Below are positions 3,891-41,329 of a DNA stretch of 64,000 nt, one piece after another. The notes below the pieces were generated by a model, which was given only the letters and a program-made list of their open reading frames with translations, was not told where the DNA came from and made no database searches. The DNA lies in assembly GCF_013122565.1 (NCBI RefSeq), contig NZ_CP053258.1. The stretch is one strand, 5' to 3'. The position numbers and the translations under genes are program-made. Within the stretch, counting starts at the first letter, position 1, and each line of letters opens with the position of its first letter. The DNA comes from Escherichia coli (GTDB taxonomy: Bacteria > Pseudomonadota > Gammaproteobacteria > Enterobacterales > Enterobacteriaceae).

Positions 3891-4640
3891 ATGAATTCCC
3901 GACAACAAACTATTCTACAGATGGTCATTGACCAGGGTCAGGTTAGCGTAACCGATCTGGCAAAAGCCACTGGAGTTTCTGAAGTTACCATTCGCCAGGA
4001 TCTCAACACCCTCGAAAAACTGAATTACCTCCGCCGTGCACATGGTTTTGCAGTTTCGCTTGATAGTGATGACGTCGAAACCCGGATGATGAGCAACTAT
4101 ACGCTGAAGCGTGAACTCGCCGAGTTTGCCGCGTCACTGGTTCAACCGGGCGAAACCATCTTTATCGAAAATGGCAGCAGCAATGCCCTGCTCGCCCGGA
4201 CTCTTGGCGAACAGAAGAAAAATGTCACTATCATCACAGTCAGCAGCTACATTGCGCATTTGCTGAAAGACGCGCCTTGTGAAGTCATTTTGCTCGGTGG
4301 CGTGTACCAGAAAAAAAGCGAAAGTATGGTTGGCCCTTTGACACGCCAGTGCATCCAACAGGTGCATTTCAGCAAAGCATTTATTGGTATTGATGGCTGG
4401 CAACCTGAAACTGGATTTACCGGTCGCGATATGATGCGTACCGATGTGGTCAATGCCGTGCTGGAAAAAGAGTGCGAAGCGATAGTCCTGACTGACAGCT
4501 CGAAATTTGGTGCTGTACATTCATACTCCATCGGCCCCGTTGAGCGATTCAATCGCGTGATTACCGATTCGAAAATACGCGCCAGCGATTTGATGCATCT
4601 TGAGCACAGTAAACTCACCGTTCACGTCGTTGACATTTAA
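3891..4640 (+). CDS. yciT: DeoR-family transcriptional regulator
   Basis: 249 aa; N-terminal HTH ([21 protein letters not shown]) and sugar-binding-type C-terminal domain. Confidence 0.85.
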
Positions 4641-4908
4641 CCATTTCCCTTCTCTACGGATGATTTGCAGTTTGGCAAATCATCCGCTCTAAGATGATTC
4701 CTGGTTGATAATTAAGACTATTTACCTGTCATTAACATTCTCAAGATATAAAATTATTATCAGCGATATAACAGGAAGTCATTATCACCTGCGTGATATA
4801 ACCCTGCGCGCGAGCGGATTTCACGGAATAATTTCACCAGGCTTATTCTTAGCTATTATAGTTATAGAGAGCTTACTTCTGTGAATCATAAATTCAGGAG
4901 AGAGTATT

Positions 4909-5221: not shown

Positions 5222-5249
5222 AAAGCCACGGATATATCCGTGGCTTTTT
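5222..5249. terminator. Hairpin terminator between convergent osmB and yciH
   Basis: aaagccacgga-tata-tccgtggcttt followed by T-run. Confidence 0.6.
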
Positions 5250-5252
5250 ATG

Positions 5253-5579
5253 TTAACCGCCTGCGAGTTTTACCTTCATCCCTTTCGCTTCAAGCAGTGA
5301 TTTTAATAAATCACGCTTATCGCCCTGGATTTCAATAATTCCGTCTTTAACTGCTCCGCCGCAGCCGCATTTTTTCTTCAGTTCCGCTGCCAGTTTTGTC
5401 AGTTCGGCATCATCGAGATCGACACCGGTAATCAGGCAAACGCCCTTACCTTTACGTCCACTGGTCTGACGCTGAATACGCACCACTCCGTCGCCTTTAG
5501 GGCGTACAGGGGCCGCTTTGGGCTCATCAATACGCCCGGTTTCTGTTGAGTAGACCAGACGGCTGTTGGAATCACTCAT
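5253..5579 (-). CDS. yciH: SUI1/eIF1-like translation initiation factor homologue
   Basis: 108 aa [17 protein letters not shown]...; start overlaps the pyrF stop by 1 nt. Confidence 0.85.
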   Translation of the reverse strand: MSDSNSRLVYSTETGRIDEPKAAPVRPKGDGVVRIQRQTSGRKGKGVCLITGVDLDDAELTKLAAELKKKCGCGGAVKDGIIEIQGDKRDLLKSLLEAKGMKVKLAGG

Positions 5580-6316
5580 CATGCACTCCGCTGTAAAGAG
5601 GCGTTGATCGCTTTCAGCGTCTGCGCTGGATCTACCGATTGCGTTACCGGGCGACCAATCACCATATAATCAACACCAGCCGCCAACGCCTGTTCTGGCG
5701 TCATAATGCGGCGCTGGTCACCAGCATCACTCCCCTGCGGACGAATGCCCGGCGTAACCAGTTTGAACTCCTGACCGAATACCTGTTTGAAACGTACAGC
5801 TTCCTGAGCAGAACACACCACACCATCAAGGCCACATTTTTGCGTCAGTGCCGCCAGACGTTCTGCATAATCTGCAGGTGACAGTGTCACGCCAAGATCG
5901 GTCAGGTCGCTGGCTTCCATGCTGGTCAACACTGTCACAGCAATCAAAAGCGGTGCATCTTTGCCAAACGGAACAAGTGCCTCACGCGCTGCGGTCATCA
6001 TACGCGCCCCACCGGAGGCATGAACATTCACCATCCACACGCCTAAGTCAGCTGCAGCAGCGACAGCGTGTGCTGCAGTGTTGGGAATATCGTGGAATTT
6101 CAGGTCAAGAAAGATATCAAAACCACGCTGTTGAAGTTCGCGCACAAACTGTGGCCCAAACAATGTAAACATCTCTTTGCCGACCTTCAGACGACAATCG
6201 CGTGGGTCGATCTTGTCGACAAAGGCCAGCGCGTCATCACGATTATGATAATCAAGGGCAACAACCACAGGAGAATTCGTAACAGCGCGGGAAGAAGATG
6301 AAGCAGTTAACGTCAT
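5579..6316 (-). CDS. pyrF: Orotidine-5'-phosphate decarboxylase
   Basis: Start taken at internal Met giving 245 aa [23 protein letters not shown]...; the ORF track extends 20 codons further upstream. Confidence 0.93.
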
Positions 6317-35628: not shown

Positions 35629-35927
35629 GTAGAGATCCAATATTTAAGGGCACGGTTTTTGCAACCGTGTTCTTGTTTGGCCTTTCCTTATAGCCGGTCA
35701 GTGCATTCACCACCACAAGCAGATAATAACTTTATCTGTATTTCTTTATATGATGTGAGCATATTCAGGAAAAATGACCTTTCCTGAGGTACAGTTGCTC
35801 GCTCAAAACCTTTGATTACTGCGGATAAAGTCATCTACTATTGTTTAACACATTCACGCGCTGCATGTATGTTCGGAAAATGTGCACGCTAAGATAATTA
35901 AACAAAATTGTGGTTACAGAGGTATCA

Positions 35928-37181
35928 GTGAGTCACTGGGCTACATTCAAACAAACAGCAACAAATTTATGGGTGACCCTACGGCACGACATGCTCGCGC
36001 TGGCCGTCTTTTTAAATGGATTGCTTATTTTTAAAACAATCTATGGTATGTCGGTCAATTTGCTTGATATTTTCCATATTAAAGCATTTTCAGAGCTGGA
36101 TCTCTCCTTGCTGGCAAACGCCCCACTATTTATGCTCGGCGTATTTCTTGTCCTGAACTCCATTGGCTTACTGTTCCGGGCAAAGCTCGCATGGGCAATC
36201 AGTATCATTTTGTTGTTGATAGCGCTAATTTACACCCTGCATTTTTATCCGTGGCTGAAATTCAGTATTGGATTTTGCATTTTTACGCTGGTGTTTTTGC
36301 TGATACTGCGCAAAGACTTCTCCCACAGTAGCGCCGCAGCCGGGACAATTTTCGCATTTATTAGTTTCACGACGTTACTGTTTTACTCCACCTACGGTGC
36401 GCTTTATTTAAGCGAAGGTTTTAATCCGCGAATAGAAAGTTTGATGACCGCGTTCTATTTTTCAATAGAAACCATGTCAACCGTCGGCTATGGCGATATT
36501 GTCCCTGTTTCTGAGTCAGCACGATTGTTCACTATTTCGGTCATTATTTCCGGCATTACCGTTTTTGCCACCTCTATGACCTCAATTTTTGGTCCGCTTA
36601 TCCGCGGGGGATTCAACAAACTTGTAAAAGGAAACAATCATACAATGCATCGTAAAGATCATTTTATTGTTTGCGGGCATTCGATTCTCGCCATCAATAC
36701 GATTCTGCAACTGAATCAACGCGGACAAAACGTAACGGTTATCAGCAACTTGCCTGAAGATGATATCAAGCAACTTGAGCAACGCTTAGGCGATAACGCT
36801 GATGTTATCCCCGGTGACAGTAATGACAGTTCAGTATTAAAGAAAGCGGGAATCGATCGTTGCCGGGCCATTCTGGCGCTGAGTGATAACGATGCAGATA
36901 ACGCGTTTGTTGTACTCTCGGCAAAAGATATGAGCAGTGATGTTAAAACAGTTCTCGCCGTCAGTGATAGCAAAAACCTGAATAAGATTAAGATGGTACA
37001 TCCGGATATCATTCTCTCACCGCAACTGTTTGGCAGCGAAATTCTGGCGCGAGTTTTAAATGGTGAAGAGATTAATAATGATATGCTCGTTTCAATGTTG
37101 TTGAACTCCGGTCATGGCATTTTCAGCGATAACGATGAACAAGAAACGAAAGCTGACAGTAAAGAATCGGCGCAAAAATAG
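35928..37181 (+). CDS. kch: Six-TM K+ channel homologue with cytoplasmic RCK domain
   Basis: GTG start giving (M)SHWATFKQT... (417 aa); selectivity filter TVGYGD in TMSTVGYGDIVP; C-terminal Rossmann-type RCK domain (HFIVCGHS...). Confidence 0.9.
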   Translation: MSHWATFKQTATNLWVTLRHDMLALAVFLNGLLIFKTIYGMSVNLLDIFHIKAFSELDLSLLANAPLFMLGVFLVLNSIGLLFRAKLAWAISIILLLIALIYTLHFYPWLKFSIGFCIFTLVFLLILRKDFSHSSAAAGTIFAFISFTTLLFYSTYGALYLSEGFNPRIESLMTAFYFSIETMSTVGYGDIVPVSESARLFTISVIISGITVFATSMTSIFGPLIRGGFNKLVKGNNHTMHRKDHFIVCGHSILAINTILQLNQRGQNVTVISNLPEDDIKQLEQRLGDNADVIPGDSNDSSVLKKAGIDRCRAILALSDNDADNAFVVLSAKDMSSDVKTVLAVSDSKNLNKIKMVHPDIILSPQLFGSEILARVLNGEEINNDMLVSMLLNSGHGIFSDNDEQETKADSKESAQK

Positions 37182-37551: not shown

Positions 37552-39376
<1,825 letters not shown>

Positions 39377-39387
39377 CGCTTGCAATC

Positions 39388-39413
39388 GGATGTGACGCAG
39401 CTGCGTCACATCC
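39388..39413. terminator. Perfect 26-bp palindrome between convergent yciU and the channel ORF
   Basis: ggatgtgacgcag / ctgcgtcacatcc, exact reverse complements; starts 12 nt after the yciU stop and contains the TGA stop of the minus-strand channel ORF; no T-run on either side, so terminator function is inferred. Confidence 0.5.
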
Positions 39414-40275
39414 GCTCTTCATTTTCCACATCTACCTTTTCCCTCCCCAGTTCATTGCCACAAATACGACAATACTTCGCATCCTGTGCATGATTTTGGG
39501 TATTGCATTTAGGACAACAGAGAAGTTTTTTAGTCTGTTCAAGTTCGCTGGTGAGTTGCGCAGTAATAATCCCCGTCGGAATTGCAATGACTGAGTAGCC
39601 AATTAAGATTAATACTGAGGCCACCATCCTTCCTGCCTCTGTATGCGGCGTAATATCCCCATATCCAACGGTAGTCACAGTCACTATCGCCCAGTAAACC
39701 GCTGTACCCAACGAGTTAAATCCGTTTGATGCGCCTTCTATAGCGTACATTAACGCCCCAGCGACGATCATCACAATTGCAATAAATGCATAAAAAAGAA
39801 TCAACTGATGTCGGGCATTTTTTATCGCCCGCCATAAACTGTTTAAGGCAGGCATAAAGCGAAGCAGGCGCAAAATTCGCAACGCGCGAATAGCTCTCAT
39901 CGCTCGCCAGGCAAATAAATAAGTAAAACCAATTTCAGGCCATAGCCACATAACATACAGCGGCAAAATGGTGGTCAGATCGATAATTCCCCAAAAGCTA
40001 AAAACATAACTTACCGGATTCGGCCAGCTTAATATCCGCAGGAAATACTCGATGGTGAAAATTAAGGTAAAGAAGAGTTCCACCCAGACAAAGATATGCC
40101 ATTCGTCGTAGGTTAACTGAAATTGCGATCCAATACCGGATTCTATGAAAACAACGCCAACACTTAACAATGCGAGAAAACCAAACAGCGCCTCGCATCG
40201 TCTACCGGTTTTTGTATGCCGATCAAAAAGAAAATGATAAAACCGCTGACGATAGCCTGAAAGTTGTCCTGTCAC
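39406..40275 (-). CDS. Kv-type voltage-gated K+ channel homologue (6 TM, charged S4, TVGYGD filter) with C-terminal Cys4 zinc-ribbon tail
   Basis: 289 aa; GTG start 5 nt after SD GGGAGG; S4 segment RAMRAIRALRILRLLRF with Arg at every third position; acidic countercharges in S2 and S3; pore AIVTVTTVGYGDITP; tail CCPKC...CRIC; not remembered at this position in K-12. Confidence 0.8.
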   Translation of the reverse strand: MTGQLSGYRQRFYHFLFDRHTKTGRRCEALFGFLALLSVGVVFIESGIGSQFQLTYDEWHIFVWVELFFTLIFTIEYFLRILSWPNPVSYVFSFWGIIDLTTILPLYVMWLWPEIGFTYLFAWRAMRAIRALRILRLLRFMPALNSLWRAIKNARHQLILFYAFIAIVMIVAGALMYAIEGASNGFNSLGTAVYWAIVTVTTVGYGDITPHTEAGRMVASVLILIGYSVIAIPTGIITAQLTSELEQTKKLLCCPKCNTQNHAQDAKYCRICGNELGREKVDVENEERM

Positions 40276-40286
40276 CTGCGCCTCCC

Positions 40287-40317
40287 ATGAAAAAGGGCCG
40301 GCAATTGACCAGCCCTT
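40287..40317 (-). terminator. Intrinsic terminator after oppF
   Basis: Minus-strand hairpin AAGGGCTGG-TCAATTG-CCGGCCCTT followed by TTTTT, 8 nt after the oppF stop and directly abutting the SD of the channel ORF. Confidence 0.6.
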
Positions 40318-40324
40318 AACCGCT

Positions 40325-41329
40325 TTATAACGGATCGACTTTCAGGCAAGAAACGGCGTGTCTGAAACTCCCCTCCAGCACAGGACGTGTTTTGGCACAC
40401 TCCGGACCGGCAATCGGGCAACGGGTACGGAAAACACAACCGGAAGGCGGGTTGATCGGCGACGGTAATTCCCCTTCCAGTAACTGGATGGTTTTGTTCT
40501 TCTCCAGATCCGGATCAGGTATGGGGACTGCCGACATCAATGCCCGGGTGTAAGGATGTAGTGGATTGTGGTAGACCTCATCATAGGTCCCCAGTTCTAC
40601 CGCATGGCCGAGATACATCACTAACACACGATCGGAAATGTGTTTTACCACGGCCAGGTCGTGAGCGATAAAAATTAATGACAATCCCATCTCACGTTGC
40701 AACTGCTGGAGCAGGTTGACCACCTGCGCCTGAATTGACACGTCCAGCGCCGACACCGGCTCATCACAGATAATCAGCTTCGGTTCAAGAATAAGAGCAC
40801 GAGCAATCCCGATACGCTGGCACTGCCCACCGGAAAATTCATGCGGATAGCGGTTAATCAGGTTAGGCAATAACCCGACTTTCAGCATCATCGCCTTCAC
40901 GCGCTCGCGAACTTCCTGGCGTGACATTTTCGGATGATAGGTACGCAGCGGTTCAGCGATAATCTCACCGATGGTCATACGCGGGTTTAGTGATGCTAAC
41001 GGATCCTGGAAAATCATCTGAATATCACTGCGAACGGCACGCCATTCATCGGGCTTCATGCCCAGCAACTCTTTACCTAACCAAGCAACATGACCGTCGG
41101 TCGCCTTGACCAAACCGATGATGGCGCGAGCAAAGGTGGACTTACCGCATCCCGATTCCCCTACCACACCTAATGTTTCCCCTTCATACAGGCGAAGAGT
41201 GACACCATCGACGGCTTTGAGCGTTTTCGGCGGTTGCCAGAACCACTGCTTGCCATCTTTGATTTCAAAGTGCACTTTTAGATCGGCGATTTCGAGGAGG
41301 ACTTTTCTTCCTTCGGTTACAGCATTCAT
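40325..41329 (-). CDS. oppF: Oligopeptide ABC transporter ATP-binding protein
   Basis: 334 aa; Walker A GESGCGKST; ABC signature and C-terminal oligopeptide-type extension. Confidence 0.95.
   Translation of the reverse strand: MNAVTEGRKVLLEIADLKVHFEIKDGKQWFWQPPKTLKAVDGVTLRLYEGETLGVVGESGCGKSTFARAIIGLVKATDGHVAWLGKELLGMKPDEWRAVRSDIQMIFQDPLASLNPRMTIGEIIAEPLRTYHPKMSRQEVRERVKAMMLKVGLLPNLINRYPHEFSGGQCQRIGIARALILEPKLIICDEPVSALDVSIQAQVVNLLQQLQREMGLSLIFIAHDLAVVKHISDRVLVMYLGHAVELGTYDEVYHNPLHPYTRALMSAVPIPDPDLEKNKTIQLLEGELPSPINPPSGCVFRTRCPIAGPECAKTRPVLEGSFRHAVSCLKVDPL

Follow-up and report, generated by a model that had tools for sequence, protein, structure and literature searches.

A perfect palindrome between yciU and a convergent K+ channel gene of Escherichia is probably a 3'-end hairpin common to two transcripts

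Introduction

REPs are partly Rho-dependent terminators as well as stabilisers of mRNA, and a dual terminator/stabiliser role has been described for REP325 (bioRxiv 10.64898/2026.03.23.713779). About 60% of REPs are located between convergent genes, 78 of them fall within 306 predicted bidirectional terminators, and a mismatched bulge is named as a defining trait of the element; their effects depend on context, and terminal REPs do not lengthen mRNA half-life globally (10.64898/2026.03.23.713779). The other systems that come close to the locus described here are bidirectional Rho-independent terminators, in which an A-tract, a hairpin and a T-tract follow one another.

Here, we compare with these systems a perfect palindrome found in a 64-kb stretch of E. 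coli DNA (the window), in which the gene order is kch-yciY-cls-yciU-[channel]-oppF-oppD. The palindrome lies where yciU meets a convergent gene for a K+ channel. The original prediction placed it at the edge of a possibly acquired gene and proposed that it could be a convergent terminator, a protein-binding site or a recombination site marking one boundary of an insertion.

Results

Anatomy of the palindrome

Rereading of the sequence confirms that the arms ggatgtgacgcag (39388-39400) and ctgcgtcacatcc (39401-39413) are exact reverse complements with zero spacer, as first described. One extra complementary pair, formed by C39387 and G39414, extends the perfect loopless palindrome to 28 bp, CGGATGTGACGCAG|CTGCGTCACATCCG (39387-39414, arms 39387-39400 and 39401-39414, no strand assigned), a result of sequence reading, inverted-repeat search and folding. 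The 26-bp form does begin at the 12th nucleotide after the yciU stop, but the start coordinate first assigned to the element, 39374, is that of the yciU stop codon; from this stop to the 28-bp palindrome the gap is 10 nt, so that the DNA at about 39.4 kb reads ...GGAATGA CGCTTGCAAT CGGATGTGACGCAG CTGCGTCACATCCG CTCTTCATTTTCC... Among the loopless palindromes of the window this is the longest. Arms of at least 14 nt have an analytic expectation of 2.4e-4 per 64-kb window, and the longest arm in 100 shuffles was 12; the element is far beyond random expectation and is not due to chance. In RNA of either strand the element forms a 12-bp stem (39387-39398 / 39403-39414), with eight G-C among its 12 pairs, closed by a 4-nt loop (39399-39402). 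Folded by itself, the hairpin has an energy of about -22 to -23 kcal/mol on either strand, and z is about -4 in a 76-nt context.

The flanking genes and the channel stop codon

On the plus strand, yciU (DUF440, 109 aa; 39047..39376) ends with a TGA at 39374-39376, 10 nt before the foot of the hairpin. On the minus strand, the channel gene (39406..40275) codes for a 6-TM K+ channel of 289 aa with Ion_trans and Ion_trans_2 domains, a TVGYGD filter and a weak C-terminal zinc ribbon, and its TGA stop (39406-39408) is located in the right arm of the palindrome. That the channel stop lies inside the palindrome, as originally noted, holds for the window allele but not as a general trait, because PT62, LP5-1 and ET201 stop at a TAA outside the element. 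The usual stop position is 39424..39426 (minus strand), which is TAA in these three strains and in CP057162 and GAA in the window; the stop-loss change from TAA to GAA adds six codons (ENEERM) and carries translation into the hairpin. On the plus strand, the equivalent of 39424-39426 is TTA in all other Escherichia copies and TTC in the window, and the TTA-encoded stop is used by all of those copies except E1130, which reads on to a TAG. Thus, the common channel allele, of 283 aa, stops 9 nt outside the palindrome, whereas the 289-aa ORF of the window overlaps it by 9 nt. Database records list the 289-aa protein (WP_171459460.1) on 2 contigs and the 283-aa form on 114. From this comparison of alleles, the overlap between stop codon and palindrome is a rare derived allele and not a design feature of the element.

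The window carries two K+ channel genes within 4.4 kb, kch (35910-37181) and the 6-TM Kv-like channel gene (39406-40275), the product of which has a conserved CPxC...CxxCG zinc ribbon at its C terminus. The Kv-like channel gene starts with a GTG (40275) preceded by GGGAGG, at a distance of only about 20 nt from the oppF terminator hairpin upstream of it (40276-40324 region). A scan of 38900-40500 found no sigma-70-like promoter, and expression of the channel may come from transcription that reads through from the opp operon. Within the channel ORF, a sub-threshold Rfam match to K_chan_RES, a eukaryotic potassium-channel RNA editing signal (39555-39669, minus strand; 23.4 bits, gathering score 51), is most probably due to coding similarity or to chance.

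The channel gene across enterobacterial genomes

The stretch of about 900 bp between yciU and oppF is kept in three of the 5426 complete E. coli genomes (PT62, LP5-1 and ET201), and the flanks were matched in 5422 of them. The segment absent from the other 5423, about 39382..40285 in the window (no strand assigned), comprises the palindrome and the channel gene. In the comparison with channel-less genomes recommended in the original prediction, the palindrome, whose presence there was to count against that prediction, is absent; only the three channel-bearing genomes have it. Channel-less genomes have a yciU-oppF spacer of 52 bp with a single hairpin, AAAAAGGGCTGACAACTGTCAGCCCTTATT. The homologue of this hairpin in the window is the intrinsic terminator of oppF, AAAAA-GGGCCGGCAATTGACCAGCCC-TT (40290..40317, minus strand), which is conserved across Enterobacteriaceae and separates the oppF stop from the start codon of the channel gene; E. 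coli without the channel have no other hairpin between oppF and yciU.

Homologues of the channel protein number in the thousands, and the order oppF-channel-yciU-cls was found in every enterobacterial locus fetched. These loci came from CP057162, Escherichia sp. E1130 and two strains of E. albertii, from two Kluyvera, four Citrobacter, Raoultella, Cronobacter, Enterobacter sp. Ag1, E. cloacae, Pseudocitrobacter and Superficieibacter, and from 'Escherichia sp. ESNIH1'. A scan of genome contigs had at least 10 enterobacterial loci among the matches listed, the others listed being distant homologues (36-44%). CP057162 and E1130 represent two cryptic Escherichia lineages, and identical copies of the former occur in E. 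coli-labelled assemblies and in read sets. CP057162.1 bears the label E. coli, but the identity of its cls, yciU, oppF and oppD genes to those of the window and of typical E. coli is no more than 91-94%, and the genome probably belongs to a cryptic Escherichia clade and was deposited as E. coli. The gene is therefore syntenic across E. albertii, the cryptic clades and other genera, which argues that it is ancestral and gives the indel the polarity of a deletion. Moreover, the window shares 97-99% identity with K-12 in its flanks, the channel gene is 91-92% identical to the cryptic-clade copies, the flanks of which are at 88-94%, and E. albertii is further away in both channel and flanks; the divergence of the channel matches that of the flanks, and gene and flanks therefore diverged together. 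These comparisons indicate that channel and hairpin are ancestral and that one deletion of about 900 bp removed both in most E. coli. The palindrome would be absent from channel-less genomes because that deletion took it together with the channel, and not because the two had arrived jointly.

An origin of the channel gene from a plasmid or phage was also considered and rejected. No close copy was found on either: phage matches were zero, and plasmid matches were only 68-70% identical, in a few Klebsiella/Salmonella 'plasmid' records, some of which are chromosome-sized. The GC content of the channel gene (about 45%) is below that of its flanks (about 52%), as could be expected of an acquired gene, but the neighbouring kch is equally low. 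Among the window ORFs there is no integrase, transposase or recombinase, and the repeat search found no direct repeats flanking the gene.

The deletion junction of channel-less E. coli reads CGCTT-TCGG-CGTGAAAAAGGG (window 39377-39390 against L002, a channel-less locus, 1978-1995, and K-12), and on the right it directly adjoins the A-tract that belongs to the oppF terminator. Speculatively, the TCGG may be what remains of the palindrome's left arm, namely its first bases, in which case both endpoints of the deletion would be at the feet of hairpins.

The yciU-channel spacer in other lineages

All 20 channel-bearing loci examined have a stable hairpin in the spacer between yciU and the channel gene (-14 to -23 kcal/mol), a spacer that is 24-74 bp long in 19 surveyed loci and 183 bp long in L101, a lineage from Logan ERR14866129 with a channel that is 80% identical. 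In 13 other Enterobacteriaceae loci the hairpin between the two stops is mostly a canonical bidirectional terminator, and terminators with the A-tract/hairpin/T-tract arrangement are found in Kluyvera, Citrobacter, Raoultella, E. cloacae, Pseudocitrobacter and Superficieibacter (for example, AAAAAAGGGCAGCTTAGCTGCCCTTTTTT). The 'convergent terminator' of the original prediction survives this comparison, a hairpin being present at the same spot in those 13 loci. The Escherichia hairpin, CGGATG...CATCCG, differs in sequence from those outside the genus and has no flanking A/T tracts. It is perfect in the window and in PT62 (CGGATGTGACGCAG/CTGCGTCACATCCG); E1130 has the window version with one C to T change, giving a G.U pair on the plus-strand transcript, and CP057162 has CGGATGGTGACGCAA/CTGCGTCTCATCCG, with one bulge and one mismatch. 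The hairpin of E. albertii is CGGATGGTG GCG TTAT CGA CACCATCCG, with a lower stem (CGGATGGTG/CACCATCCG) that has one more G:C pair than that of the window (CGGATGTG/CACATCCG), a two-sided difference. The metagenomic lineage L100 (84% identity) has a shortened GAGGATGC/GCATCCTC version, AAGAGGATGC-TGCT-GCATCCTCTT. With five to six distinct variants, the Escherichia hairpins are too few for covariation statistics, and the shortened version of L100 cannot be aligned by MAFFT. In L101, the spacer (2350-2532) holds a different perfect palindrome, of 24 bp (AATGAGCAGCATATGCTGCTCATT), 4 nt after the yciU stop, together with two bona fide REPs in inverted orientation, i.e., a BIME; REPs can thus land in this spacer. 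Across these loci, the position and stability of the hairpin are conserved and its sequence turns over, which is the behaviour expected of an RNA 3'-end structure and not of a sequence-specific protein site.

Terminator features of the hairpin

The palindrome is a stable GC-rich stem-loop, with 10 nt between it and the yciU stop on one side and 9 nt between it and the usual channel stop on the other. A simple terminator scan flagged it on the plus strand only (12 pairs, eight of them G-C, tail CTCTTCATTT), which also favours the terminator option. Both the scan and folding place a T-rich tail with a weak U-tract, CTCTTCATTTTCC, at 39415..39427 in the yciU sense; CTCTTCATTT has T at four of its first 8 nt, within the loose criterion of the scan, and the run is interrupted. 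In the channel sense there is no U-tract on the minus strand: the tail, ATTGCAAG, has T at two of eight positions, and the scan left this strand unflagged. By these features, the palindrome would be at best a weak intrinsic terminator for yciU and would not be a canonical one for the channel gene.

A second loopless perfect palindrome, of 26 bp, is found at 5222-5247 of the window (AAAGCCACGGATATATCCGTGGCTTT, followed by more T's), where it abuts the end of a minus-strand ORF (5253..5582); by its sequence, it resembles a textbook intrinsic terminator of the bidirectional kind.

Relationship to REPs

When the palindrome is scored against the Z-type REP consensus, it matches at 24 of 32 positions, the best of all window positions on both strands, and this score was reached by only two of 20,000 composition-matched random palindromes (P about 1e-4). 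Among 4227 Rfam models, the top match at the locus is naRNA4, which is derived from REP325 and the Z hairpin of which aligns on the palindrome; this match (24.4 bits, E 0.011 in 181 nt) falls short of the gathering score, 59.5, and no Rfam model reached its gathering score at the palindrome locus. A short-query blastn of all E. coli genomes returned, besides the three true copies, a match at 31 of 37 positions in about 1000 B2-type genomes, which is the REP of the tktB-ypfG spacer (GTCGGATGTGACGCTGGTGCGTCTTATCCGGTCTAC). In PT62 (NZ_CP090448.1), two places were reported by blastn, the second presumably being a weak REP-like match. The palindrome also has the extragenic location of REPs between convergent genes, since it lies between convergent stops in the common 283-aa allele.

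Membership of the REP family was nevertheless rejected. An nhmmer profile of 22 REPs, found by pattern in four regions of K-12 for which the RefSeq annotation listed zero REP features, did not recover the palindrome even at E<=100, yet it recovered the tktB-ypfG REP of B2 genomes (E 3.8e-5), and the covariance model score is far below gathering. The REP bulge is absent: the palindrome is perfect (14/14), and the positions that are G.T and C.T in REPs are G-C and T-A here. In place of the GGCCTAC tail (GTAG on the other strand) there is CTCTTCA. Finally, the element is single-copy and not dispersed as REPs are, the full sequence being found at one place, in three of 5426 E. coli genomes, and no canonical REP was found in the window, including by a search for TATC[CA]GGCCTAC-type tails. 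The stem is REP-like all the same, and it may well derive from a REP.

Another hairpin of the window, CGGATGATTTGC-agtttg-GCAAATCATCCG (4657-4686, followed by CTCT), lies 17 nt after the stop of a plus-strand ORF (3891..4640) and has the foot and tail CGGATG...CATCCGCTCT in common with the palindrome. The window has two occurrences of the arrangement CGGATG-N14-24-CATCCG, against 0.07 expected.

Discussion

The palindrome is probably an RNA hairpin common to the 3' ends of two convergent transcripts, acting on both as a terminator and as a barrier to exonucleases. This is the ordinary explanation, the palindrome being a familiar type of 3'-end hairpin. The two transcripts would be that of yciU (and cls-yciU), on the plus strand, and that of the channel gene, on the minus strand, and in Escherichia a REP-like hairpin (CGGATG..GACGC / GCGTC..CATCCG) without A/T tracts would have replaced a bidirectional Rho-independent terminator. 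Its likeliest action, as for REP-type hairpins in 3'-UTRs, would be to pause RNA polymerase or to terminate it in part. On the yciU side, termination would be weakly intrinsic, owing to the CUCUUCAUUUU tail after the hairpin; on the channel side, it would probably be assisted by Rho. By blocking 3'->5' exonucleases, the hairpin would define and stabilise both mRNA 3' ends, and it would limit convergent read-through. Following the deletion of about 900 bp, the oppF terminator would have been left to serve both sides. Some observations do not fit this explanation easily. There is no U-tract in the channel sense and only a weak one in the yciU sense, and the perfect symmetry could have arisen mutationally, by template switching within a quasipalindrome, without selection. 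Moreover, ribosomes translating the window allele have to open the 5' arm, which would hinder formation of the hairpin on the channel mRNA.

It is also conceivable, although we consider it unlikely, that the palindrome is a neutral relic with no present function, i.e., a decayed solo REP or other hairpin, the symmetry of which was produced by intrastrand template switching of a quasipalindrome during replication. In agreement with this, the element resembles a REP in its stem but has lost the features that RAYT recognition requires, and it is perfect only in the lineage of the window and PT62, with one mismatch in E1130 and a bulge and a mismatch in CP057162; the three differences from CP057162 are all toward symmetry. 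In addition, most E. coli have lost the element without obvious cost. However, a strong hairpin occupies this spot in every channel-bearing lineage despite unrelated sequences, and the fact that a hairpin is always kept in these lineages argues for a maintained function of some hairpin there. In E. coli, the hairpin was lost along with one of the two genes that it served, and its place was taken by the oppF terminator next to it.

Less probable still is a role of the hairpin at translation termination, instead of or besides transcription. The hairpin is at most 10 nt from both stop codons, and in the window allele the channel stop is enclosed in it; terminating ribosomes would need to melt the stem, which could lead to stalling and tmRNA tagging. 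Stalling and tmRNA tagging reportedly occur at REPs located within about 15 nt of a stop codon. If the hairpin acted in this manner, the rare 289-aa and the common 283-aa alleles would constitute a natural experiment in the interference between ribosome and hairpin, and the level of a K+ channel no longer present in most E. coli would be tuned by them.

We regard it as very unlikely that the palindrome is a binding site at the DNA level, for a dimeric regulator or a nucleoid protein on inverted half-sites (TGTGACGCAG), as the 'protein-binding site' of the original prediction would have it. The dyad symmetry is perfect and TGTGA...TCACA are the half-site words of CRP; in the CRP consensus, however, TGTGA and TCACA are spaced by 6 bp, and here they are 10 bp apart (TGTGA-N10-TCACA). 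Stop codons flank the site on both sides, 38900-40500 contains no promoter-like sequence, and a CRP-type operator was rejected on account of the N10 spacing and of this lack of a promoter nearby. No second copy of the palindrome is found in the window, in which the half-site recurs at chance level (7 matches against 5.8 expected, at <=3 mismatches). Relatives keep the pairing and not the sequence, a sign of RNA or DNA structure and not of an operator. Lastly, a recombination or attachment site at one boundary of a horizontally inserted channel cassette is extremely improbable, for although the palindrome strictly co-occurs with the channel in E. coli (3/5426 genomes) and the low GC content of the gene could speak for such an insertion, the gene order is the same in at least 10 other genera or lineages, the outgroups all carrying the gene at this site, the channel is as divergent as its flanks, there is neither a recombinase nor direct repeats that would betray an att site or the inverted repeat of a mobile element, and the other edge is the conserved oppF terminator.

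If the palindrome is indeed such a 3'-end hairpin, its importance hardly goes further than correct annotation, and its evolutionary context is the more useful result. A second K+ channel of the voltage-gated type, with a C-terminal zinc ribbon, appears to be ancestral at the oppF/yciU site in Enterobacteriaceae and to have been deleted in nearly all E. coli. In the convergent spacer, types of terminator turn over, from canonical terminators to REP-like hairpins and to other perfect palindromes with or without REPs, and a hairpin is always kept. The spacer is thus a small, clean example for the study of how REP-like hairpins substitute for intrinsic terminators.

In relation to known systems, the palindrome resembles bidirectional Rho-independent terminators in consisting of one GC-rich hairpin located no more than about 10 nt from either stop, and it is the positional equivalent of the canonical terminators at the yciU/channel junction of Kluyvera, Citrobacter, Raoultella and E. 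cloacae. It differs from them in having no upstream A-tract, a broken T-rich tail (CTCTTCATTTT) and, in the channel sense, the tail AUUGCAAG; its 12-bp stem is also longer than that of typical intrinsic terminators. The oppF terminator of K-12-type E. coli plays the same role, the hairpin AAAAAGGGCTGACAACTGTCAGCCCTTATT serving the convergent oppF and yciU genes, but it is unrelated to the palindrome in sequence. With Z-type REPs, the stem shares the words CGGATG.GACGC / GCGTC..ATCCG, and, like REPs and the BIMEs that they form, the palindrome is located in a convergent 3'-3' spacer, the commonest location of a REP.
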